NCBI GenBank assembly: GCA_965208575.1
Contig: CBDBOV010000006.1
Coordinates: 1,216,001 to 1,280,000 of the forward strand
Length of the DNA stretch: 64,000 nucleotides
From: Spirochaetia bacterium
Lineage (GTDB): Bacteria > Spirochaetota > Spirochaetia > SZUA-6 > Bin103
Direction: 5' to 3'
The first letter of the stretch is position 1, and each line of letters starts with the position of its first letter. A program made the translations under genes and the position numbers. This document shows positions 49,213 to 64,000 of this stretch, in pieces. Under the pieces are notes generated by a model. It was not told where the DNA came from, ran no database searches, and was given only the letters and a program-made list of their open reading frames with translations.

Positions 49213-50013
49213 TCAGCGGGCGAGGATTGCTTCGAGGTTGGGGCGGTCGATCAGGGCGGCGTCGGCGGGGCGCTCCAGGAAGGGCTGCACGTCGCGGGCC
49301 AGTTCGCGGGTGTCCAGGCCGGCCAGGCGCGCGGACAGCAGGTCGCGCCAATCGGCCGCCCGGTACGTGCCTGCGCCTTGCGTCTGGTCGAGTGCGTTCT
49401 GCAGGAGTTGCAGGTTCGGCTCCAGCGGCGGGCGGCGTGAGCGGTACCAGATCAGGTCGTACCAGTCGCGGCCCTTGGGGTAGCCGCGGGTCAGCAGCGC
49501 GTGCAGCTTGCCGGCGAACAGCGATGGCAGGTCGTAGTGGCTGACGACGAAGGTGAAGTGGCGGGTCACGAGCGTGCGCTGCATCGCGGCGCCTGCCGGC
49601 GGACGGATGTCGATCTCCAGCTTCACGGAGAGGTTCTGGCGCGCGTGGCCGGACAGGCCGGCCTCCGCTAGCAGGTGCGCGGTTCGCACCCAGGCCACCT
49701 GCACCGGCTCGCGGTCGATCCAGCGAATGGTGCTGTCGAAGCCGGCGAGGTGGAGGTCGCGCTTCAGTTTCTCCAGCCAGCGCACGGGTTCGTAGCCGTC
49801 AGCAGAGACGCGGGAGAAGTCGAGGTCTTCCGAGAAGCGCGGCAACTCCTCCAGGAAGCGCAGCGCCGTGCCGCCGACGAACGCCACCGCCCGCCCCGCC
49901 TCGCTCTCGTGCAGCGACCGCATGATGAACGCCTGCAGGTACTCGCGCAGCGCGTTGAGCCGGCGCGGCGGATCGTCGAATCGTAGCGCCTGGGCGAGCG
50001 CCTGATCCTTCAC
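49213..50013 (-). CDS. abiEii: AbiEii-family nucleotidyltransferase toxin (type IV TA)
   Basis: FVGGTALR...RFSEDLDF, KLEID, GKLHA...KGRDWYDL; GTG overlaps upstream stop. Confidence 0.9.
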   Translation of the reverse strand: MKDQALAQALRFDDPPRRLNALREYLQAFIMRSLHESEAGRAVAFVGGTALRFLEELPRFSEDLDFSRVSADGYEPVRWLEKLKRDLHLAGFDSTIRWIDREPVQVAWVRTAHLLAEAGLSGHARQNLSVKLEIDIRPPAGAAMQRTLVTRHFTFVVSHYDLPSLFAGKLHALLTRGYPKGRDWYDLIWYRSRRPPLEPNLQLLQNALDQTQGAGTYRAADWRDLLSARLAGLDTRELARDVQPFLERPADAALIDRPNLEAILAR

Positions 50014-50651
50014 AGTTCGACTCCCTCGGCTTCCTGCTCGGCGCTGCACGCCAGCCACACGTCCACGGCGCGCCCGATGCGCGGCTTTCCGATGCGATGC
50101 GCAAAAGCGCGCAGGCGGTCGCGGTCGACGACGTCGGTCTGCTGGAACCGCATCTCGGTCATCCGGCGCCGGTCCCACTCGCCCGGGTGCAGGTGGAACA
50201 GGTCGAGCAGCGCCTTCTCGGCGGTCGCCACCAGCGCGTCGCTGCCGGCGACCGACACGCCGTGGTAGCCGAAGAACATGCTCCTCTTGATGGCCGTGTA
50301 GCGGAACATGCCGAACGTATTTTCGAAATGAGCGGGACCGCGGGTGGTCACGCTGGTGTAGACCGGCACCGCCTCGGGGATCAGGCCGTAGAAACCGAGC
50401 GCCCAGGGGCCGCTGAGATAGGACGGAGAGCAGAGGGCGTTGGCCAGCGCCGCCGGCGGCACCGGCACGCGGCGGTAGCGGTCGGCCAGGGCATACATGC
50501 CGCGGCGCAGCGGGATCAGCTTGCCCGCCCGGCTCCAGCGGTAGAGCTGGTTCACCACGTCGCGCCGCGGTTCGCCGCACAGTTGCACGACCGTCGCCAA
50601 GTCGAACCAGGGCGTCGCACCCAGCAGGTCTGCCACTTCATCAAGGCGCAT
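50010..50651 (-). CDS. abiEi: AbiEi-family antitoxin
   Basis: wHTH with LRRGMY, PSYLS..WAL.FYGLIPE, ATAEKALLD. Confidence 0.88.
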   Translation of the reverse strand: MRLDEVADLLGATPWFDLATVVQLCGEPRRDVVNQLYRWSRAGKLIPLRRGMYALADRYRRVPVPPAALANALCSPSYLSGPWALGFYGLIPEAVPVYTSVTTRGPAHFENTFGMFRYTAIKRSMFFGYHGVSVAGSDALVATAEKALLDLFHLHPGEWDRRRMTEMRFQQTDVVDRDRLRAFAHRIGKPRIGRAVDVWLACSAEQEAEGVEL

Positions 50652-50661
50652 ATTACAAACC

Positions 50662-50699
50662 GTTGATGATAACCTACAGAAACGCCGGTTATTGTCAAC
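50662..50699 (-). promoter_or_regulatory. abiE promoter/operator inverted repeat
   Basis: GTTGATGATAACC / GGTTATTGTCAAC overlapping TTGACA on the minus strand. Confidence 0.65.
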
Positions 50700-50760
50700 A
50701 GTTCCCGCCTGAGAGACCCAGGGTTCCACCAAGTTTCGACGGGCAGTGCTGCGGACCGTA

Positions 50761-51328: not shown

Positions 51329-52249
51329 TTACTTTGCCTTCCTTGCTGCGTCGTAGCGGCCGGCGCCGCCTCTCAGGCGCGGGTCGAGGAGGTCCCTTAT
51401 CGCGTCGCCGACCATGTTCAGGCTGTACACCACGGTGGTCAGGCAGAGACCCGGCCAGAGCGCCAGCCACGGCGCCGACTCCATGTACTTGCGGCCTTCC
51501 CGGCTGAGCATCCCGCCCCAGCTCGGGACCTCGATCGGCATGCCGTAACCGAGGAAACTGAGGGACGCCTCCGATATGACTACCGCGCCGATGTTGATGC
51601 TGAAGATGATGATCACCGGAGCCGCAATATTGGGCAGCACGTGGCGCGTGAGTATATTCCATTGCGAGCATCCGATTGCTTCTGCGGCCTGAAAATAGGT
51701 GTTCTCCTTCACCCCGATGACCGCGCCTCTGGCGATTCTCGAGCCGGGTATGCCGCCGGATATGCCGAGCACGATGATGATCTGAAACATTCCACGTCCC
51801 ACTATCGACATGATCGTCAACAACAGGAGAAGGCCGGGGAAACACATCCAGGCATCGACGAATCTCTGCACCGCCAGGTCGAATCTGCCGCCGATGAATC
51901 CCGACGTCCCGCCGATGAGCACCGCTACCGTGACCGTCAAGGCGCTGGCCACCATGCCCACGGTCAACGAAATACGGGCACCGTAGATAAGGCGGCTCAA
52001 GAAGTCCCGCCCCAGGTAGTCGGTGCCCAACGGATACGTTATCGATGGACCGGTCAAGCGGTCCTCCAAGTGCGGCTCATCATACGCGTACGGAGCAACG
52101 AAATCGGCACAAACAGCGACGATCACGAAGACCACGACGACGACACCGCAGATCGTGCCGAGCGGTTTTCGTTGCCACAACCGAATCAGGAAATTGACCG
52201 ACCCGATGCCTCTCTTGCGGTCGCCGTCCGCCGGCCCTGTTTCCCTCAC
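51329..52249 (-). CDS. Peptide/nickel-type ABC permease (DppC-like)
   Basis: LGTDYLGRD, EAA loop YFQAAEAIG, RHVLPN, PSWGGML. Confidence 0.93.
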   Translation of the reverse strand: MRETGPADGDRKRGIGSVNFLIRLWQRKPLGTICGVVVVVFVIVAVCADFVAPYAYDEPHLEDRLTGPSITYPLGTDYLGRDFLSRLIYGARISLTVGMVASALTVTVAVLIGGTSGFIGGRFDLAVQRFVDAWMCFPGLLLLLTIMSIVGRGMFQIIIVLGISGGIPGSRIARGAVIGVKENTYFQAAEAIGCSQWNILTRHVLPNIAAPVIIIFSINIGAVVISEASLSFLGYGMPIEVPSWGGMLSREGRKYMESAPWLALWPGLCLTTVVYSLNMVGDAIRDLLDPRLRGGAGRYDAARKAK

Positions 52250-53202
52250 TTGTAGCGGATCCGGGGATCGAGATATGGATAGATCAGGTCGATGAGCAGG
52301 TTGATCCCGACCACCGATGTGGCGAAAAAGAGATTCACCCCGGACACCATCGGGTAGTCTCTATCCTCGAGGGCGAGCAGAAACAACCGACCCAAACCGG
52401 GCAGGTTGAAAATGTTCTCTATGATGACAGAGCCGCCGACCAGTACCGGAAGCTGGAGACCAATCAGGGTAACCACGGAGATGAGGGCGTTCTTGACCGC
52501 ATGCCTCATGACCACCACCCGCTCCCGCAATCCCTTCGACCACGCGGTCCTGATGTAGTCCTGCCGGAGCACCTCCAGCATCATGGTACGGGTCATGCGC
52601 ATGGTCGACGCGGAAAAGTATGTCCCCATAATTAGACTGGGGAGGAAGAACATGCCCAGATTCTCGAGCGGGTTGTCGGCGAATCGGATCAACCTCATCG
52701 GCGGTGACCAGTTCCACCAGATTGCCGGGAACACCATGATCATGGTGGCGATCCAGAAGCTCGGGGTGGCGATGCCGATTACCGCTACGGTGCGACCCAG
52801 ATAATCGCCGGCGGTCTCCTGCCGGATCGCTGAATAGACGCCGATCGGGAGAGCTATCACGAGGCCGATAATGATCGCCAGCAGACCAAGTTCGAGGGTC
52901 ACCGGTAGTCGGTCGGCAATCTTTTCTTCCACGGTCCAATCGCTCATCATCGATTCGCCGAGGGTGCCGTGCAGAATAATCCCGCCGATCCAGCGTCCGT
53001 ACTGGACGTGCGCGGGCACGTCCAGGCCCAGCCTGCGCTCGAGAATTTCCCGGTCGACGTTGCCGATCTGCTGTTCCATCACGCCCAGCATGGCATCTAC
53101 CACGTCACCCGGAATGAACCGGACCGAGAAGAACACCAGGACGCTGAGCAGAAACAGGGTTGGGATGATGAGCAGCAGCCGCCTGATGATGTAGGCTCTC
53201 AT
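52246..53202 (-). CDS. Peptide/nickel-type ABC permease (DppB-like)
   Basis: MRAYIIRR, DYIRTAWSKGL, RDYP, LDPRIRY. Confidence 0.93.
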   Translation of the reverse strand: MRAYIIRRLLLIIPTLFLLSVLVFFSVRFIPGDVVDAMLGVMEQQIGNVDREILERRLGLDVPAHVQYGRWIGGIILHGTLGESMMSDWTVEEKIADRLPVTLELGLLAIIIGLVIALPIGVYSAIRQETAGDYLGRTVAVIGIATPSFWIATMIMVFPAIWWNWSPPMRLIRFADNPLENLGMFFLPSLIMGTYFSASTMRMTRTMMLEVLRQDYIRTAWSKGLRERVVVMRHAVKNALISVVTLIGLQLPVLVGGSVIIENIFNLPGLGRLFLLALEDRDYPMVSGVNLFFATSVVGINLLIDLIYPYLDPRIRYK

Positions 53203-53222
53203 GTCCCCAACCTCAAGGTTGC

Positions 53223-53249
53223 GGGACGGCGGCGTGGCACCGCCGTCCC
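53223..53249 (-). terminator. Stem-loop after binding-protein gene
   Basis: GGGACGGCGG / CCGCCGTCCC perfect inverted repeat. Confidence 0.55.
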
Positions 53250-53262
53250 ACGGGTGAAATCC

Positions 53263-55056
53263 CTAGTAGCCCATTTCCTTTTTCAGCGCGCTGTCGAGCC
53301 AAAGCCGCGACCAGATGATACCGCCATAGTTCATCCCGCCGAGGGTGACCTCGCCGTTGAACCCGACAACCCACGGCTGAGCCGCCTGGTAGAGCGGGCC
53401 CTTCGGACCCCACGTCTGCACGTGCTGCTCTACCCAATACATGCTTCCCTTGATCGACTGTTCCTTCAGTTCCTCGATGGTGGTAGCCGCTCTCGCAGCC
53501 GCCACGATCGCGTTATAGGCAGGATCGTCAAACTGTCCGCGGTTCCATTGATGTCCTACCTCAAAGGTCGACAGGGCATCTACAGGCGGATAAGGAGTGC
53601 CCGCAATCGATTGTACCAGGCCACCAAAGCTCAGGTCCTTGATGCGGGCGACATGGGTAGCTCCTTGCACCGGCGTCAACGTGACATCGACACCAATCTT
53701 GGACCAGGAATTCTTGACCAGCTCTGCCCACTCCGGAGTGCTCGTCCAGTGGTCCAGGTTGGTCCTGATTCTGATCCCGTCGGCGCCCCGCGGATAGCCG
53801 GCTTCATCGAGCAGTTCCTCTGCCCGTTCCGGATTGTACGCGTACTCTTCCTTGAGCTCATCCGGCCACTCGTCGTATGGGGTCACGTACCCCACCCAGC
53901 CATCGCCGAGATAAGCTTGCGGCTTCCAAAAACTCGCGCCACCGAAAAAGGTATTGTGGAATGTCTCATTGTCCAGCGCCAACTGCATCGCGATACGCAC
54001 CCTGATGTCGTCGAATGGCGGTGCCGTCATGTTGAAGGCAAAACAATAATTGGACCTGAAGTACCACGGATACAAAACGATATCCGGATTGGTCTCGGCA
54101 AGGTTTTGCGCGGTCTCCAATACGCGTATGTTCGAGCCCCTCGCGCCGTGCCCGATGAAATCGATCTTGCCGGTTCTCAGTGCCGACAGGCGGGTGGTCT
54201 CTTCCGGCATGACCAGGGCTTCTACCCGGTCCATGTAGGGCAACCGGTTTTCCGGAAATTTCTCGTCGAATCCCCAGTAATTCGGGTTCCTTTCCCAGGT
54301 GATGGAACTGCCATCGACCCAATCGGTCAGCATGAAGGGGCCAGTACCGACCACATCCCGCCAATCGTTCACATCGCCCTTCTCCATGATCACCTCGGGG
54401 GGCAGGATGTAGGCAAGCGCGTCGTCGATGATTACCCGGAAGGCGGCCAGAGACGGTGTCTTCAGCTTGAACACGACGGTGTAGTCGTCGACCGCGGTTA
54501 CGGATTCCGCCGGAACCTGCGGAAGCTGCAAAGTGTAGCCGGGATAGTCGGTGAAGCCGCTGCCCAGGCCCATCAGGCGATGATAGTTGTACTCGATATC
54601 CTTGGCGGTCAGCTCGCGTCCGTTGAGCGGCGCCTTGTCGTGCCAATGCACGCCTTTGCGGATGTGGAAGACGTAGGTTAGCTGGTCCGGTGTCTCCCAG
54701 CTTTCGGCGAGAGCACCGGTATAGGCGACGTCGGCGACCAGCTCGGTACCGTAGTCGTACACGCTCCTGTCTATGCCCCAGTTTCCCTGGGAGAGCTTTT
54801 CATTGACGCCGCTGAGCAGGAATCCGGCGTGGTGACGTGCTACCGAGGGATCGGTTCCGTCCGGTTGACCGTTGTAGCCTGGAAAGAACGTTCCGCCGTA
54901 TTGCGGCGCCAGGATTTCCTTGCCGGTGGTGGGGTCGGTCACGTATGTCTTGGCGGCTGCCGGCGCCTCTTCCGAGGCAGCGGCCCATAGGCCGGTTGCG
55001 GCCAGGACGAGGACCAACGCAACCGCGAGGGTGGTCGTGAGTTTTCCTACCTTCAT
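53263..55056 (-). CDS. ABC solute-binding protein family 5
   Basis: Signal ending LWAAASEE; LAESWE, GTGPF, RNPNYW, PFDDIRVR; AAGGAG before ATG 55056. Confidence 0.92.
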   Translation of the reverse strand: MKVGKLTTTLAVALVLVLAATGLWAAASEEAPAAAKTYVTDPTTGKEILAPQYGGTFFPGYNGQPDGTDPSVARHHAGFLLSGVNEKLSQGNWGIDRSVYDYGTELVADVAYTGALAESWETPDQLTYVFHIRKGVHWHDKAPLNGRELTAKDIEYNYHRLMGLGSGFTDYPGYTLQLPQVPAESVTAVDDYTVVFKLKTPSLAAFRVIIDDALAYILPPEVIMEKGDVNDWRDVVGTGPFMLTDWVDGSSITWERNPNYWGFDEKFPENRLPYMDRVEALVMPEETTRLSALRTGKIDFIGHGARGSNIRVLETAQNLAETNPDIVLYPWYFRSNYCFAFNMTAPPFDDIRVRIAMQLALDNETFHNTFFGGASFWKPQAYLGDGWVGYVTPYDEWPDELKEEYAYNPERAEELLDEAGYPRGADGIRIRTNLDHWTSTPEWAELVKNSWSKIGVDVTLTPVQGATHVARIKDLSFGGLVQSIAGTPYPPVDALSTFEVGHQWNRGQFDDPAYNAIVAAARAATTIEELKEQSIKGSMYWVEQHVQTWGPKGPLYQAAQPWVVGFNGEVTLGGMNYGGIIWSRLWLDSALKKEMGY

Positions 55057-55078
55057 CAGGTATCTCCTTGTGTCGATG

Positions 55079-55224
55079 TGTCGATTTTCCGAGAGTATTG
55101 CAGTGCGGGTGGTCGCTCCCTGGCTACTCCCTCGCCGGCAACGCCGGCGGCCAGACGTAGTCAAATGGATTACAGCGCGCGGCGTGTGACTCAGCGGGGT
55201 TCACCCGCGCTCACGCCGCGCGCG
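55079..55224 (-). ncRNA. Conserved structured leader of family-5 binding-protein gene, copy 1 (candidate cis-regulatory RNA)
   Basis: Block-wise conserved with 63871-64000, with compensatory changes in hairpins. Confidence 0.6.
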
Positions 55225-55558
55225 GGTAGGGTTCTTTGAGTGTCATCAAGCACCTCCAACGTTCGGTACGGTGACGGTGAATGGCGGCGACGGCGCGCGC
55301 GGGGGAGTGATCAGCCGGAGTGCTTGGTCGTTCTCGGTTCGACAAGGTTGACGGGTGGGCACCGGCTGCGTCACCGCCAACCGGTCACTGCGCTCACTGT
55401 CGCCATTGCGCATCATGACCATCCGTTCGATCCTTGAACCCTCCCGAGTCTCACAGGCTCGCCGGACCATGTCAAGCGCGCCGGCCGTCCGGTCTCGCCG
55501 GCCGGCGACTGTTCCGCCGTTACCCAGGCAGGCGGCGACGGCGCCGCGCGGGCAAGGG

Positions 55559-56710
55559 CTACTTGTAGGGGTCGGCGGCGTCGCGGAGGCCGTCGCCGAG
55601 GAAGTTGAAGGCGAGCACCGCGGCTACCACGAACAGGCCGGGGATCAGCAGCCACGGGTGCAGCAGCACGGCGTGCACGTTCTGGGCGTCCTTCAGCAGG
55701 GTGCCCCAGCTCACCACCGGCGGGCGCAGGCCCAGGCCCAGGAAGCTGAGCGCGGTTTCGCCCAGGATCATGTAGGGCACCGCCAGGGTCAGGCTCACGA
55801 TCAGGTAGCTCAGGAACGACGGCAGGAGGTGCAGGGCGACGATCTTGCCCTCGCCCCTGCCCGCCACCCGCGCCGCGGTTACGAAGTCCTGCTGGCGCAA
55901 CTCCAGCAGCTTGCCGCGCACCACCCGCGCCAGCCCCGCCCAGCCGAACATCGACAGGATGATGGTGATCGCGAAGTAGGTCTTCAGGGTGCCCCAGTGG
56001 GTCGGCAGGGCGGCGCTCAGCGCCATCCAGAGGGGGATGGTGGGCAGCGAGATCAGGATCTCGATGCCGCGCTGTATGATCATGTCGGGCTTGCCGCCGT
56101 AGTAGCCGGAAATGCCGCCCATGGTGCAGCCGAGCACGAAGCTCAGGAACACGCCCACCAGGCCGATCGACAGCGAGATGCGCGACGCGTAGACGGTGCG
56201 CGAGTACAGGTCGCGGCCGAGTTTGTCGGTGCCGAACAGGTAGAACGCACCGTCCTCGACCCCGGCCAGGCGCAGGTCCGCCTCCCAGATGCCCCACAGC
56301 TTGTAGGGGTCGCCGTGCACGAAGAAGCGGACGTAGTGGCGCGTCTCGGGGTCTTCCTTGTACACGCGGCGGAACGCCTTGCGGTCCACCACCTTCTGCA
56401 CGTCGTACACGAACGGGCGCAGCCCCCAGCCGTTCTGGTCGCCGAAGCGGATCTTCTGCGGCCGCATGTACACGAACTCCGCGTCGTGCTTGAGGATGTC
56501 GTGGGTGGCGAAGAACTCGCTGAAGAGGGCGAACAGGTAGAACACCGCCAGCACCGCCCCGCCGGCGATGGCCAGCCGGTGGCGCGTGAACTTGCGCCAC
56601 ATGAGCTGCCACTGCGAGGCGACGAAATAGCGGTCGTCCTCGGCGGCACGCGAGACCGGTCCGGCGGTGCGCGGCGCCTGACCCGCGCCGGGTGCGGCGA
56701 TGTCGCTCAT
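55559..56710 (-). CDS. ABC permease (OppC/DppC-like)
   Basis: FGTDKLGRDL, FVTAARVAG, HLLP, GDGLRDAADP. Confidence 0.93.
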   Translation of the reverse strand: MSDIAAPGAGQAPRTAGPVSRAAEDDRYFVASQWQLMWRKFTRHRLAIAGGAVLAVFYLFALFSEFFATHDILKHDAEFVYMRPQKIRFGDQNGWGLRPFVYDVQKVVDRKAFRRVYKEDPETRHYVRFFVHGDPYKLWGIWEADLRLAGVEDGAFYLFGTDKLGRDLYSRTVYASRISLSIGLVGVFLSFVLGCTMGGISGYYGGKPDMIIQRGIEILISLPTIPLWMALSAALPTHWGTLKTYFAITIILSMFGWAGLARVVRGKLLELRQQDFVTAARVAGRGEGKIVALHLLPSFLSYLIVSLTLAVPYMILGETALSFLGLGLRPPVVSWGTLLKDAQNVHAVLLHPWLLIPGLFVVAAVLAFNFLGDGLRDAADPYK

Positions 56711-56711
56711 G

Positions 56712-57707
56712 TCAGCCCGCCATCGCCTCGTAGCGGATGCGCGGATCGATCAGCACCAGCAGCATGTCGGAGATGAACGTGCCGATTACCACCATGAAGG
56801 TCAGCAGCATGGTGATGCTGCCGGCCAGGTACATGTCCTGCGCCAACAGCGCCCGGAACAGCAGCGGCCCGGTGGTCTCCAGCCCCAGCACGATCGCCGT
56901 AATCGTCTCTCCCGAAACGATGCCGGCCAGCGCCCAGCCCACCGTGCTGACGATCGGGTTGATCGACAGCCGCACCGGGTACTTGTACAGCAGCGTATGC
57001 TCGTCCACCCCCTTGGCGCGCGCCGTGATCACGTACTGCCGCGCCAGCTCGTCGAGCAGCGAACCGCGCATCACGCGCACCAGGTAGCCGGTGCCGGCGG
57101 TGCCGATCACCAGCACCGGAATCGGCATGTGCTTGAGCAGGTCGAGCACCCGCGCCCAGCTCCACGGCGCGTCGACGAACTCCGGCGAGAAAAGCCCGCC
57201 GATGCTCCAGCCGAACCAGCGGTTGAACAGCAGCATGAAGATCAGCGCGAGCAGGAAGTTGGGCGTCGCCAGGCCCACGAATCCCATGAAGGTGAAGGAG
57301 AAGTCGGCGACCGAGTACTGGTGGGTGGCGGAGTAGATGCCGATCGGGATCGCGATGACGTAGGCGAACAGCAGCGACGACAGCGACAGCAGCACCGTGA
57401 ACGGTAGCCGGTCGGCGATCAGCGTGCCCACCTTCTCCTTGAGGTTGAACGACCAGCCCAGGTTGCCGCGCGAAATGCGCCAGATCCACACCGCGTACTG
57501 CACGTGCACCGGCTTGTCCAGGCCGTACAGCTTGCCCATCGCCGCCAGCTCCGCCTCGTCGACGTCGCGCCCGAGCGCCTGCTGGTTGGCGCGGTACACG
57601 GTCAGGTAGTCGCCCGGCGGAAGCTGGATGATCAGGAACGAGATCATCGACACCAGCACCAGGACCAGGGCCATGTACAGCACGCGCCGGATGACGTAGT
57701 TAACCAT
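56712..57707 (-). CDS. ABC permease (OppB/DppB-like)
   Basis: IQLPPGDY, QYVITARAKG, QDMYLAG, DPRIR. Confidence 0.93.
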   Translation of the reverse strand: MVNYVIRRVLYMALVLVLVSMISFLIIQLPPGDYLTVYRANQQALGRDVDEAELAAMGKLYGLDKPVHVQYAVWIWRISRGNLGWSFNLKEKVGTLIADRLPFTVLLSLSSLLFAYVIAIPIGIYSATHQYSVADFSFTFMGFVGLATPNFLLALIFMLLFNRWFGWSIGGLFSPEFVDAPWSWARVLDLLKHMPIPVLVIGTAGTGYLVRVMRGSLLDELARQYVITARAKGVDEHTLLYKYPVRLSINPIVSTVGWALAGIVSGETITAIVLGLETTGPLLFRALLAQDMYLAGSITMLLTFMVVIGTFISDMLLVLIDPRIRYEAMAG

Positions 57708-57725
57708 TTGCTGCGCTTGGAAAAA

Positions 57726-57762
57726 ACGGCGGGCACCGGCTGCTGCGGCCGGCGCCCGCCGT
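57726..57762 (-). terminator. Stem-loop with U tract after binding-protein gene
   Basis: ACGGCGGGC(A)CCGGC / GCCGG(C)GCCCGCCGT preceded by A6 on plus strand. Confidence 0.6.
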
Positions 57763-57791
57763 CATCTATCGTACGCTAACGCTCCGTGGAG

Positions 57792-59747
57792 CTACTGCTT
57801 GACCCACCACTGGTAGACGCGCCCGCGGAAGTTGCCCGCGGTGGCGTTGGTCCACGCCAGCTCGTCGTACAGGTTCATGATGTTGCGGCGGAAGATCATC
57901 GGGCGCGGCGGCAGGCCGACGGTACCGATGGCAAACACGTTCTCGGCGAACATCATCATGAATTCCTTGCCCATTGCCTGCCACTTGGCGTCGTCGAGCT
58001 CGTTGCGCATCGCGTGGCCGAGATCGAGCATCTCCTTGGCCACGCCGACCGGCTCCTCGCCCGACTCGCCGTTGGACTGGTACCAGTTGCGCCACATCGG
58101 CGCCCAGTGACCGATGGTCAGGAACCAGCCGCTCGCCGGGCTGTCGGTGCGGTACTTCAACTGGCTCGGTTCCATGATCCAGGTAGTCAGGTCGTAGTCG
58201 GCGTTGTTGGTGCGCAGCGAGAACAGGCTGCGCTCGATGATGCTGAACTTCAGCTCGATGCCCACCTCGCGCCAGTAGTTGGTGACCAGCTCGGAGATGG
58301 TGACCAGGTCGGCCAGGCCGGTGCCGGTGATCACCTCCAGGGTCAGGCGGTTGCCGTCGGAACTGAGCCGGTAGCCGTCGCCGTCGCGCTCGGTCAGGCC
58401 GATCTCGTCGAGCAGCCGGTTGGCCTCGTCCACGTCGTAGCGGATCGCCTCCTGCTCGGCGGCCTGCACCTCTTCATCGTAGAACGGCTCGTCGCCGAGG
58501 GCGAAGCCGAGCAGCGGCGTGGCCAGCCCCTGGAACACGATGTCGTTGATCTCGTCGCGGTCGATGGCGTGCGACAGCGCCTGCCGGAACCGCTTGTCGC
58601 GGTACAGCTCGCGCCGCACCGGGTCCTTGTGGTTCAGGTTCAGGTAGTAGGAGCCGGCGCCGGCCCAGGTGTTGGGGCCGATGATCACGTTGTAGTTGTA
58701 GCGCTCGGCGTTCTGCTCCAGCAGCGGCGCCTCGTCCATGCCGAAGCCCTCGACCAGGAAGTCGAACTCGCCGGCGATGCCGCGCGCCTTGACCAGCTCC
58801 GACTCGACCACCAGCACGCCGTAGATGTTGTCCAGGTAGGGGAGCTGGTTGCCGGCCTCGTCCACCTTCCAGTAGTAGGGATTGCGGTCCCAGACGGTGC
58901 GGTCCATGGTCACCGAGGTGGGTACCCAGGCGTACAGGTAGGGCGGGCCGGGATAGTGGATGTAGGGCCGCGTCTTTTCGCGCGTCTGGTTGAACAGTTG
59001 CCACCACTCCTCGAGCCCCTCTTCCTTGGCCTTCTTGTCGGCGTCCTCGTTGTAGTCGATGTGCAGCTCCTTGAAGTAGTGCGCCGGGAAGTAGTGGTTC
59101 ATGTAGCCATTGGCGGCCGTGAACATGAACAGTTGCGCGGGCGACGGCCCGGCGAACCCGAACTGCACGGTGCTGTCGTCGATCTGCGTGAAGGTCATGC
59201 GGGAGCCGTGCGACATCCAGGCGCCAGGGGTGAGCGGCGTCAGCTTGTCGTTGAACTGCACGTCCTCGTAGTAGAAGCGCAGGTCCTCGGCGGTGAACGG
59301 CGATCCGTCCGACCACTTGATGCCCTCGCGCAGGTGCACGGTGAGCTGCGACTTGTCGTCGTTCCAGTCCCAGGCGCGCGCCACGTTGGGCACCACGTTC
59401 AGGGAGTCCTCGGGGTCGAGCTCCATCAACGGTTCGATGTTGACGTGCGCGATCATGTACCAGTTGCCGGTGCTGTGCTTGATCGCCGTGATCGCACCGC
59501 CGTACTCGCCGATCTCATCCTTGACCTTTACCACCAGCGGCTCCGGCGGCAGCCGTTCCTCCACCGGCGGCAGGTCTCCGGACGCCACCAGTTGCGCCAG
59601 CGCGGGCGCCTCGTTGAAGCTGCCGGAAGCGGCCATCGCCCCCGCCGAGCTCGCCTCTGACGAGCCCTCGTCCTCGCCGCCGGCCCAGACCATCGCGGCC
59701 GAACCGAGCAGCACCAGCGAAACCATTACGCCGGTCATCGCTTTCAT
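57792..59747 (-). CDS. ABC solute-binding protein family 5 (likely oligosaccharide-binding subgroup)
   Basis: GDLPPVEERLP.EPLVV, GEYGG, KWSDG.PFTA, RNPYYWKVD.AGNQLPY. Confidence 0.92.
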   Translation of the reverse strand: MKAMTGVMVSLVLLGSAAMVWAGGEDEGSSEASSAGAMAASGSFNEAPALAQLVASGDLPPVEERLPPEPLVVKVKDEIGEYGGAITAIKHSTGNWYMIAHVNIEPLMELDPEDSLNVVPNVARAWDWNDDKSQLTVHLREGIKWSDGSPFTAEDLRFYYEDVQFNDKLTPLTPGAWMSHGSRMTFTQIDDSTVQFGFAGPSPAQLFMFTAANGYMNHYFPAHYFKELHIDYNEDADKKAKEEGLEEWWQLFNQTREKTRPYIHYPGPPYLYAWVPTSVTMDRTVWDRNPYYWKVDEAGNQLPYLDNIYGVLVVESELVKARGIAGEFDFLVEGFGMDEAPLLEQNAERYNYNVIIGPNTWAGAGSYYLNLNHKDPVRRELYRDKRFRQALSHAIDRDEINDIVFQGLATPLLGFALGDEPFYDEEVQAAEQEAIRYDVDEANRLLDEIGLTERDGDGYRLSSDGNRLTLEVITGTGLADLVTISELVTNYWREVGIELKFSIIERSLFSLRTNNADYDLTTWIMEPSQLKYRTDSPASGWFLTIGHWAPMWRNWYQSNGESGEEPVGVAKEMLDLGHAMRNELDDAKWQAMGKEFMMMFAENVFAIGTVGLPPRPMIFRRNIMNLYDELAWTNATAGNFRGRVYQWWVKQ

Positions 59748-62042: not shown

Positions 62043-63857
62043 CTAGTTTCCCATCTCTTCCTTCATCTCCTGGTCGATCCAGAGGCGCGCCAGGTGGGTC
62101 ATGCGTTCGCCCCATCCCATGCCTGCTTCACCGAAATAACCCTGAACCCACGGTTGGTTCACGAAATGATTGGGGATGTTGGATTTCACCAAGCCGCAGT
62201 GCTCCCTTACGCAGAGCTCATCGGACTGTCTCTGTATCCTCTTGAACTCCTCGATGTCGGTAGTCTCCGAGGCGGCAACATAAAGGGCGTCCATGCGCGG
62301 ATCATTCATCTTGTTGGCGCTGCGGCCGCTGACCAGTGTGGTTACCGCTCCAAACGTGTATCCGACCAGGCCGGGGCCGCCGAAGTAGCCGTAATACGAA
62401 GTAAATAAGCCGTACTCAAGCGTTTCCGCCTTCAAGGCAGCTCCCATTTCAGCGGTACCGAACACCTCAAGCTCGCCTTTTACGCCAATGGCGTCGAGGT
62501 AGCCGATGACCAGTTCCGGATAGGTCTCATCCCACCGGTCGAAATGGCCCAGCTTGATGGTAAATCTATAACCGTCGTCGCCGCGCGGATAGCCGGCAGC
62601 ATCAAGCAACGCCTCTGCCTCTTCCGGGTGATACTCATACTCATGCTTGACGTCGTCCGGCCACTCTGCATATGGCCAGCTATACTGTGGCGTGAATTGG
62701 CCAACCAACCCGTACGGTGTTGGATCGCCCATACCCTTGTTGTAGGTAGCGTTGATGGTCTCGCGGTCCACTGCCATCTGCAGTGCCTTGCGCACATTGA
62801 CGTCCTGCATGAACGGCACAGTCCAATTGAAATAGAACGTGCCGCTAGGCCGGCTATAGACCGGCCAGAACTCCATTTCAGGGTTGGTCTGCTGGAGGCT
62901 CGCTACGTCGTCGATAGAGGTTACATAGGCGTCGCCGACGTTACTCAGCATATCAATCTTGCCGGTGCGCAGTGCCGCCAGACGTGTCGATGTGTCCGGC
63001 ATGAGCAGCGACCGGTACTCGTCAATATAGGGCAACCGGTTGCCGAATTTCTCGTCAACGCCCCAGTAGTCAGGATTCTTCACCCAGGTTGCCGAGCTGC
63101 CCTCCACGAAATCAGTCAGTCGCAAGGGCCCGGTGCCGACCACGTTGTTCCAGTCCTTGGCGTCTCCGTATTTCTCGATTACTTCGCGAGGTAACACGAT
63201 AAAGTAGTTGTTGGTCATTTTCCCGAGCACATCGAGCTGAGGCTTTGCCAGCTTGATCTCAATCGTCCATTGGTCGGTGGCCGTTACCGAGACGATTTCT
63301 GCACCCTGAGTTACCCCACCCTTGCCGGTGCTCGGCCCGTCTTCGGCGAAGTCCCCCAGGCCCAGAAAGCGGTGATAGTTCCATTCGACGTCATGAGCAT
63401 CGAACTGCCGACCGTTGACCGGCTCCTTGTCGTCCCAGTTGACGCCCTGGCGAATGTTGAAGATGAACGTGGTGTCGTCGGGCATCGACCAGCTTTCGGC
63501 CAGAGACCCTGTGCTCATCTCCGGGGTCACCACTTGGTACAATTCACCGCGCCATATATCTCTGGATAGTCCCCAGTCGGCGAACGCGAGCCGTTCATTG
63601 ACACCCCCGATGAGGTGTTGCGCCCAGCCAGTATTGAACCAGGGGTCGATACCCGGAGGATAGACCTTGGCGCCCCACGTGAGGATCCCGCCATACTCCG
63701 GCGCGGTCCACGTCCTTCCGGTCGCGGTGTCGAACACCGTTTCCCTCTCCGTAGCCGCCGCCGGCTCCTCTTCCGCGGCGGCGGCCCAGAGGCCGGTCGC
63801 CATCAGCACCAGGATCAACGCAACCGCAAAGGTCCTGGTAACTTGCATGAAATTCAT
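62043..63857 (-). CDS. ABC solute-binding protein family 5, paralog of 53263-55056
   Basis: LWAAAAEE signal, LAESWS, GTGP, KNPDYW, LRTGKID. Confidence 0.92.
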   Translation of the reverse strand: MNFMQVTRTFAVALILVLMATGLWAAAAEEEPAAATERETVFDTATGRTWTAPEYGGILTWGAKVYPPGIDPWFNTGWAQHLIGGVNERLAFADWGLSRDIWRGELYQVVTPEMSTGSLAESWSMPDDTTFIFNIRQGVNWDDKEPVNGRQFDAHDVEWNYHRFLGLGDFAEDGPSTGKGGVTQGAEIVSVTATDQWTIEIKLAKPQLDVLGKMTNNYFIVLPREVIEKYGDAKDWNNVVGTGPLRLTDFVEGSSATWVKNPDYWGVDEKFGNRLPYIDEYRSLLMPDTSTRLAALRTGKIDMLSNVGDAYVTSIDDVASLQQTNPEMEFWPVYSRPSGTFYFNWTVPFMQDVNVRKALQMAVDRETINATYNKGMGDPTPYGLVGQFTPQYSWPYAEWPDDVKHEYEYHPEEAEALLDAAGYPRGDDGYRFTIKLGHFDRWDETYPELVIGYLDAIGVKGELEVFGTAEMGAALKAETLEYGLFTSYYGYFGGPGLVGYTFGAVTTLVSGRSANKMNDPRMDALYVAASETTDIEEFKRIQRQSDELCVREHCGLVKSNIPNHFVNQPWVQGYFGEAGMGWGERMTHLARLWIDQEMKEEMGN

Positions 63858-63870
63858 ACGTTACTCCGCA

Positions 63871-64000
63871 TGTCGATTGTCGAGAGTATTGCGTAGCGGC
63901 CTGCCGCTCCCTGGCTACCCTCAAGCCCGCAACGCGGGCCGCCAGACTGAGTCAAAATTCACCGGCAGCGCGCGGCGTGTGACTCACCGGGCTCGCCCGG
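63871..64000 (-). ncRNA. Conserved structured leader copy 2 (cut by window end)
   Basis: Aligns with 55079-55210. Confidence 0.6.

Follow-up and report, generated by a model that had tools for sequence, protein, structure and literature searches.

A putative cis-regulatory mRNA leader with a small upstream open reading frame precedes dozens of family-5 binding-protein genes in a Spirochaetia bacterium

The stretch of DNA that we analyzed (the window, 64 kb, G000:C6:1216001-1280000) comes from the assembly of an uncultured Spirochaetia bacterium that has 6.5 Mb in 6 contigs and a G+C content of 67%. It holds two copies of an element of about 210 nt, each placed just 5' of a gene for a family-5 solute-binding protein. 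We think it fairly probable that this element is an undescribed cis-regulatory mRNA leader that depends on a small upstream open reading frame (uORF). An earlier note on this DNA had marked positions 55079-55224, read on the plus strand, as a structured leader shared by two operons and a candidate riboswitch or cis-regulatory RNA. The genes that the two window copies precede are on the minus strand, as are the functional strands of the copies, and the leader therefore has to be read as the reverse complement. Read in this way, the conserved unit of the first copy runs from approximately 55271 to 55047 (174.4 bits with a covariance model), so the span in the earlier note leaves out a Shine-Dalgarno (SD) sequence and the first half of the uORF, and homology among the copies begins about 45 nt upstream of the end that it gave. 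The number of operons was also too low. With 62 matches to our covariance model (R1) in this genome, the leader is common to dozens of them, and one leader design probably controls about 60 related binding-protein genes together in this bacterium.

We followed the uORF through 146 copies, 50 from this genome (alignment A2) and 96 from relatives (alignment A4). A canonical start codon stands at the uORF position in 133 of the 146, with ATG (116 copies), GTG (12) and TTG (5) interchanging, and 120 of those 133 have an SD-like motif in the 20 nt that precede the start. The frame is 11 codons long in 112 copies, and its family consensus is MILKEPHARAA. For codons 3–6 (Leu-Lys-Glu-Pro) we counted 81 synonymous against 15 non-synonymous differences from the consensus. 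By codon position (1/2/3) these differences are 2/7/24 for Leu, 0/1/11 for Lys, 0/2/31 for Glu and 1/0/20 for Pro; all four Pro codons (CCN) occur at codon 6, and the residue that follows this Pro is His, Tyr or a stop. From the synonymous excess we take it that this stretch is both transcribed and translated, and that the core of the peptide matters. Judging from these codon patterns, we conclude that the uORF is translated and that the peptide core M-I-L-K-E-P is kept by selection.

The second half of the uORF is different. Codons 7–11 make up the 5' arm of P1 and had no coding-type variation in the 146 copies. P1 is the 12-bp helix that the earlier note had reported, and it is indeed there; its 5' arm consists of the last five codons of the uORF plus the stop codon. 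Because the two overlap, a ribosome that finishes the uORF must unwind P1. A translated uORF that reaches into a 12-bp helix points to a ribosome- or leader-peptide-dependent device over a classical riboswitch. The consensus peptide has no run of regulatory codons, and its Ala and Arg codons sit in the P1 arm.

For the RNA structure we worked with A2, which was aligned with MAFFT only and used no structure, and with A4, in which the copies were fitted to the model for P1, P1a and P3–P5. P2 is absent from the model, and its A4 counts are therefore free of bias from the fit. From the MAFFT alignment RNAalifold gave only P1 and the core of P3; we placed the remaining helices by hand before testing them against column shuffles and against partners slid by 1–3 columns. 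An all-against-all mutual-information scan was of no use, as adjacent columns and subfamily signal dominated it. Standard pairs account for 90.0% of cells in A2 and 89.4% in A4, compared with 29–54% and 28–53% for the slid partners. Pairs that had changed on both sides numbered 15 in A2 (shuffle mean 7.9) and 17 in A4 (shuffle mean 9.0), and in each case 0 of 500 shuffles reached as high. Single-sequence folds recover P1, P3, either P4 or P2, and P5, with P1 adding about -30 kcal/mol to the fold.

We aligned the two window copies on the minus strand (75% mean column identity over 223 columns) and found that the six blocks quoted in the earlier note are invariant and that the variable pairings it quoted are present in both. 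Its broader claim, that pairing is kept where the letters vary, is true of the set of helices, which do better than the shuffled and slid controls, but it does not extend to the 12-bp helix and CTGGC/GCCAG, which are too invariant for covariation. P1 is paired in 96.5–97.9% of cells and P2 in 88–98%, and both are nearly invariant. There is also a possible 7-bp pseudoknot, PK1, between UGACUCA in the linker and the complementary UGAGUCA in the P1 loop of the consensus; each of its five core pairs is a standard pair in 93 or more of 96 sequences, yet invariant, and the window copy reads TTGACTA. P1, P2 and PK1 hardly vary and thus give no evidence from covariation.

The strand can be read from mismatches, since an A-C cell is one that would be G-U on the opposite strand. 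G-U cells outnumber A-C cells by 122 to 10 in P3 and by 55 to 22 in P5; the counts are 28 and 19 in P1, 16 and 15 in P2, and 41 and 81 in P4. Most of the A-C excess in P4 appears to be due to the outermost C/A position. This position is uncorrelated in A4 (CG 26, UA 17, UG 14, other 38) and is probably not a pair. P4 itself (CGAGAGUA/UACUCUCG) has no linker between its 5' arm and the 3' arm of P2, and both-side changes occur in 5–6 of its 8 pairs in A2 and A4. We also checked P4 across the different leader types of this genome (described below), using the upstream regions of 107 paralogs and anchoring by the invariant cores alone. Both cores were present in 49 regions, where the inner dinucleotides were TA/TA in 21, TG/CA in 8, CA/TG in 2 and CG/TG in 2. 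The inner positions are 81.6% paired; 2000 shuffles averaged 70.5% and reached 78.6% at most. Sequence comparison thus supports four RNA helices on the sense strand, P1a, P3, P4 and P5.

Two further pairings were seen. A hairpin whose loop holds the binding-protein SD and whose 3' arm holds the AUG has 57–63% of cells paired and belongs to a subfamily only. A helix between UACUC in the uORF and GAGUA in the P4 5' arm is present in the consensus, and we rejected it: a CTC to CTG change breaks it in 15 of 96 copies, and changes in the P4 5' arm are compensated, where they are compensated at all, in the P4 3' arm and not in the uORF. Separately, one leader subfamily in relatives (L143, L160, L183 and L099 in A4) is about 230 nt long and has the P3 hairpin tandemly duplicated.

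Searches of this genome gave 56 copies with blastn, 63 hits with an nhmmer profile and 62 matches with R1. The earlier note had raised scattered copies in random orientation, as in a repetitive extragenic palindrome (REP) or a miniature inverted-repeat transposable element (MITE), and this is not what we see. All 56 blastn copies have a family-5 binding-protein gene downstream in the same orientation; 55 of these genes are paralogs at 33–55% amino acid identity and one is a distant member at 25.6%. For the copies in relatives that have enough flank, 30 of 31 adjoin a co-oriented family-5 binding-protein gene. The leader does resemble a REP or MITE as a repeat of roughly 200 nt that is rich in inverted repeats and present in dozens of copies. 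It differs in having a coding signature and a single orientation and position relative to one gene family, and this fixed placement argues that it is neither. The second window copy is cut by the window edge and is complete in the genome (locus L025, G000:C6:1279848-1280063 by the covariance model).

R1 matched 8 of 24 genomes of the family: G000 (62 matches), G005 (84), G001 (43), G006 (35), G003 (33), G007 (5), G008 (2) and G004 (1). Beyond the 62 in this genome there are thus 203 further copies in seven of ten congeners, and approximately 265 natural variants in all. R1 gave no match in the other three congeners (G002, G009 and G010) or in 13 genomes of the sister genus, and blastn gave none in 17 genomes from seven other families of the order. 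Among the genomes searched, the leader is confined to one genus. It is also found in the Spirochaetia bacterium metagenome-assembled genome records OZ253572.1 and OZ242313.1 and in the metagenome-assembled bacterium isolate RHO3_bin_31. Matches of a 19-mer in Algimonas, Parahaliea, Archangiaceae, Myxococcaceae, Solirubrobacterales and others cover only the P1-like G+C palindrome (10–22 bits), and we do not consider them to be the leader. Beside the leader in one relative (L164, positions 441-616, G006:C33) there is an Rfam group-II intron D1-D4-6 match of 130.5 bits that is cut at the locus end. The parts of the leader in the window and the genes that follow it are collected in Table 1.

Table 1. 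Parts of the leader and downstream genes in the 64-kb window.
Feature	Position	Strand	Remark
uORF Shine-Dalgarno, GGAGG	55253-55257	minus	6 nt before uORF ATG
uORF, 11 codons + TGA	55211-55246	minus	MTLKEPYPRAA in window copy; family consensus MILKEPHARAA
P1, 12-bp G+C helix	5' arm 55212-55223; 3' arm 55175-55186	minus	5' arm within uORF
P1a, hairpin	55194-55208	minus	enclosed by P1; 3 both-side-changed pairs in each alignment
Invariant UGAGUCA	55187-55193	minus	enclosed by P1
Conserved single-stranded linker	55155-55174	minus	contains (U)UGAC-UC
P2	CUGGC 55150-55154; GCCAG 55120-55124	minus	encloses P3 and P4 5' arm
P3, hairpin	55133-55149	minus	7 bp, GUU loop
P4	5' arm 55125-55132; 3' arm 55090-55097	minus	crosses P2 as H-type pseudoknot; P5 inside
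P5, hairpin	55102-55119	minus	
Spacer, binding-protein SD and start codon	55046-55089	minus	SD 55064-55069; start codon 55054-55056
Family-5 solute-binding protein, 597 aa	53263-55056	minus	PF00496, E 4.5e-73
Two permease genes	52246-53202; 51329-52249	minus	same operon
Second leader copy	63848-64000	minus	141.7 bits, model positions 63-212; 5' end beyond window edge
Binding-protein gene after second copy	62043-63857	minus	PF00496

The genes under this leader belong to a large expansion. A tblastn search for family-5 binding proteins found 185 loci in the 6.5 Mb, and 107 of them are full-length paralogs (bits of at least 350, about 600 aa); window genes of this family include 53263-55056, 57792-59747 and 62043-63857. 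The leader described here, which we call type 1, is the commonest and is carried by 55 of the 107. The controlled binding proteins are approximately 45% identical, are of generic peptide/nickel/opine type and lie below every NCBIfam equivalog cut-off, and the signal peptide and N-terminus are conserved among the type-1 copies. Type-2 leaders follow the same overall layout as type 1; they have the P4 box, CGAGAGNN...NNCTCTCG, in common with it, plus a GGCGAGGG core. About 130–170 nt upstream of the gene they have a very strong SD (GGAGGTG) followed by a mini-ORF, Met-Lys-Lys-stop (3–4 codons), or by a bare start-stop (for example at C6:172804, C5:378842, C1:15866 and C5:117326). A G+C hairpin is present in one type-2 example, C6:172804, and type-2 leaders have no more than a weak P2-like helix, 64% paired at the best register and 39–51% at others. 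Type-3 leaders have nested G+C hairpins (CGGG/CCCG) beside the SD. Ahead of one of them, upstream of C6:513149, there are several tandem 11-nt repeats (CCGTCCTGCTC), with a shorter run before C5:201812.

Each leader type is paired with its own signal-peptide type, and the leader type does not follow the tree of the binding proteins. On a FastTree tree of 106 paralogs, which has SH-like (Shimodaira-Hasegawa-like) supports only, explaining the distribution of type 1 takes 27 changes, of which starred branches force at least 20. Sister pairs tell the same story at the level of the gene. C6:936781 (type 1) and C6:943528 (type-2-like) are, from about +95 on, 92–100% identical over most of the coding sequence, with a dip to 53–73% at about +335 to +570, and their leaders and first 60–90 nt are unrelated. 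C6:947326 and C5:378842, and likewise C4:524518 and C5:486800, have 63–97% identity in the gene body and unrelated leader and signal-peptide modules. The breakpoint in the three pairs falls between about +60 and +130 of the coding sequence. A leader type that is off the binding-protein tree, together with unrelated 5' modules on near-identical bodies, indicates that recombination spreads the unit. By these comparisons, leader and signal peptide behave as a 5' cassette of approximately 300 nt (about 55260-54960 in the window) that is swapped among paralogs by recombination.

The flanks upstream of the uORF are made up of several unrelated repeated modules, and we found no promoter-like motif common to them. 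Each of these modules (e.g. at G000 C4:509077, C6:953166, C4:502603 and C5:323649) is common to up to about 10 copies. Some hold another hairpin with a GCGTTGC loop, and one ends in an apparent divergent gene start approximately 55 nt from the uORF SD.

The leader matches no described RNA family and is, as far as our searches go, genuinely undescribed. Rfam 15, whose families include TPP, cobalamin, SAM, glycine, FMN, lysine, ZTP, yybP and guanidine, had no match over the whole window at gathering thresholds, which agrees with the earlier note, where no known riboswitch class had been recognized. At E<=10 on 54950-55400 there were only a 12-bit match to a miRNA model and an opposite-strand match to radC with 20.5 bits (gathering threshold 40), and eight further leader copies gave no match to the element. 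A full-text literature search in a limited collection found no description of such a leader.

Some known systems do have parts in common with it. The uORF with its SD, start and in-frame stop is shared with the trp, his and ilv attenuators; in our scans and folds there was no U-tract terminator and no antiterminator, unlike in classical attenuators. The leaders of tnaC, ermCL, secM and pyrBI type work through arrest peptides or ribosome position. Like those of arrest peptides, the present leader has a short ORF, a conserved peptide and a downstream RNA element that a ribosome would occupy or melt, and the counts for Leu-Lys-Glu-Pro given above are what is expected of a peptide sequence under selection. 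It differs from all four in having no sequence likeness and in an ORF that enters a 12-bp hairpin for which we see no evident alternative partner. T-box leaders and cyclic di-GMP class I (c-di-GMP-I) riboswitches form multi-copy cis-regulatory RNA regulons, and here too one RNA design stands before many operons of a genome. In contrast to those, the present leader has no Rfam match, a higher copy number than we know of for either, and a range of one genus among the genomes searched.

In Borrelia, the upstream homology box (UHB) region includes a shared leader peptide. The UHB is described as similar promoter sequences of the ospE/ospF/erp lipoprotein genes on cp32 plasmids (PMC7002432). As described there, it is likewise a case of spirochete paralogs that have diverged and kept a near-identical 5' flank thought to have been spread by recombination (PMC7002432). 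The present leader differs from that description in that it is transcribed, carries a uORF and RNA helices and lies on chromosomal contigs, and we liken the two by description, not by sequence. The leader-peptide devices are the closest known kind, and one example is the ilvB-II motif of Corynebacterium, a riboswitch candidate that was re-read as a uORF attenuator, which was held to be more likely than a riboswitch (PMC10272879). In both cases a conserved candidate for a structured RNA turned out to hold an in-frame start and stop with an SD (PMC10272879). The ilvB-II peptide is described there as enriched in the regulated amino acids and as serving one biosynthetic operon (PMC10272879), whereas in our leader Leu-Lys-Glu-Pro itself is conserved, there is no run of regulatory codons, and 60–84 copies per genome stand before transporter genes.

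If the leader does depend on its uORF, we can propose how it might work. The transcript would begin upstream of the uORF. Any ribosome translating the uORF would have to melt P1, and its occupancy of MILKEP, or pausing there, would set whether P1 forms. Read-through, stability or translation initiation of the mRNA for the binding protein would then depend on P1 and the P2–P5 domain. The 60–80 operons per genome would in this way respond to one global cue and not to their individual substrates. A more specific version, which we consider doubtful, is that the conserved hexapeptide MILKEP is a new nascent-chain sensor. Ribosome pausing on it would hold P1 open and, together with P2–P5 as a new pseudoknotted RNA domain, switch 60–84 operons, and the device, fused to its own signal peptide, would be a portable cassette that recombination distributes among more than 100 transporter paralogs; the global cue might be a metabolite, an aminoacyl-tRNA or the state of a translation factor.

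Several observations weigh against a uORF-dependent device. In 14 of the 146 copies the uORF has only 6 codons (MILKEP and then TAG), and 13 copies have no canonical start. Overall covariation is modest, and the shuffle figures overstate its significance since the copies are related; recombinational spread of the cassette, and not selection alone, accounts for part of the high similarity of the copies and for part of the difference in conservation between leader and protein that the earlier note had remarked on. P1, P2 and the UGAGUCA/UGACUCA pair would suit palindromes in DNA equally well. We also looked for an output step and did not find one. P1 is not a canonical intrinsic terminator, as 5 or more T within the following 8 nt occur in just 1 of 50 copies in A2 and 13 of 96 in A4 (14 of 146), and a consensus scan of the minus strand found no terminator and no sigma-70 promoter. 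In folds of 50 copies we kept the uORF and the P1 5' arm from pairing, at a cost of about 29 kcal/mol. Under this constraint the P1 3' arm gains no consistent partner, and pairing of the SD of the binding-protein gene does not change consistently. The RNA data that we had are from three metatranscriptome runs and one run of unstated kind, as assembled contigs that are mostly 90–95% alike and come from relatives or paralogs. Contigs of this sort (a relative at about 91% identity) cannot show transcript ends or strand. Among the RNA pieces listed, none bridges leader and gene, and the longest on the binding-protein gene stops at 54957.

Other explanations have to account for the same facts. A metabolite or second-messenger riboswitch, in which the P2–P5 pseudoknot (perhaps with the linker) is the aptamer for one global molecule and the uORF and P1 are accessory, would fit the compact pseudoknotted domain with its covarying stems and invariant unpaired junction nucleotides, its distance of about 20–40 nt to the downstream binding-protein SD, the related P4 box in type-2 leaders, and the fact that no known class matched. 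We nevertheless judge it unlikely. The terminator scan, the U-tract count and the constrained folds of 50 copies turned up no expression platform, the translated uORF is left unexplained, and the low identity of the controlled proteins, all below the equivalog cut-offs, indicates that no single substrate links them. To our knowledge no riboswitch class reaches 84 copies in a genome. Of the ligand- or protein-responsive leader that the earlier note had proposed, what remains is a strand-specific structured leader on an expanded transporter family; there is no evidence for a ligand, and the translated uORF had been missed. Another explanation, which we hold to be improbable to the same degree, is that the leader is the target of a trans-acting RNA-binding protein or small RNA, such as a global regulator that binds conserved GGA-containing or GUU-loop hairpins, or that it is a 5' stabilizer in which a ribosome on the SD or mini-ORF and P1 protect the mRNA. 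The stability of P1 (about -30 kcal/mol) would suit a stabilizer, as would the very strong SDs and mini or start-stop uORFs of type-2 leaders, where the peptide cannot matter. GGA motifs at both SDs and at the P2/P5 junction, and GCGUUGC-loop hairpins that recur in several leader types, would suit a trans factor, and one shared factor would fit a regulon of 60–84 operons. However, selection on the amino acids of Leu-Lys-Glu-Pro is unneeded for a mere ribosome-binding stabilizer, no candidate protein or small RNA was identified, and the GCGTTGC hairpins are not specific to the leader, as just 56 of 145 lie upstream of binding-protein genes.

A further alternative is a promoter and operator cassette acting at the level of DNA. 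Transcription factors would bind the inverted repeats (P1, TGAGTCA/TGACTCA, P3 and P5), and the AATACT of the P4 3' arm would serve as a -10 box that leaves a short 5' untranslated region. The palindromes P1, P2 and TGAGTCA/TGACTCA are invariant and have no strand-specific signal, the P4 3' arm and the uORF start both contain ATACTC, and a portable unit with heterogeneous upstream flanks would be expected to bring its own promoter. The coding signature of the uORF, however, implies that the region is transcribed and translated, G-U is far above A-C in P3 and P5, and the compensatory changes in P4 join segments about 40 nt apart. The TTG of the TTGAC block varies (TCG, CTG) and lies about 60 nt from the -10-like hexamer, and no site of sigma-70 type was found on the minus strand; we regard this explanation as very improbable. 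The last alternative is that the leader is a functionless repeat, its copies alike only through gene conversion among paralogs. The 27 changes of leader type on the tree and the unrelated 5' modules on near-identical bodies are in its favor, but recombination cannot explain patterned substitutions in the uORF and the helices, namely the wobble positions of the uORF, G-U in P3 and P5, and compensation in P1a and P4. The leader is moreover conserved across 8 genomes of the genus, and we find a functionless repeat hardly credible.

The neighborhood of the first copy has a few other features. We found no ATPase gene after the permeases in the window operon (51329-55056, the only operon inspected), which would suggest that its ATPases are encoded elsewhere. 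Third-position G+C is 0.74–0.79 in this leader-bearing operon (53263-55056 and 52246-53202) and 0.95–0.97 in the adjacent upstream family-5 operon (57792-59747, 56712-57707 and 55559-56710). The upstream operon (55559-59747) has no type-1 leader. Just 3' of the transporter operon, at 49213-50732 on the minus strand, there is an AbiEii nucleotidyltransferase toxin (PF08843, E 4e-22) with a weak AbiEi-like antitoxin ORF; the two ORFs overlap and the gene limits are approximate. DNA runs labeled 'sponge metagenome' contain 24–34% of the sampled words of the window segment 51300-58000, which is a hint of habitat only.

For motif hunting, the case is a caution, because a 'covarying riboswitch candidate' held a translated uORF, as with ilvB-II. 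If a uORF-dependent leader is the right reading, the few candidates for sequence-dependent control of the ribosome would be joined by a new conserved leader peptide, and the regulatory leader and the signal peptide would travel jointly as an exchangeable module. The regulon would be unusually large for a cis-regulatory element, with up to 84 leader copies in a relative of 4.9 Mb, and one small RNA-and-peptide device would govern the largest gene family of these genomes.

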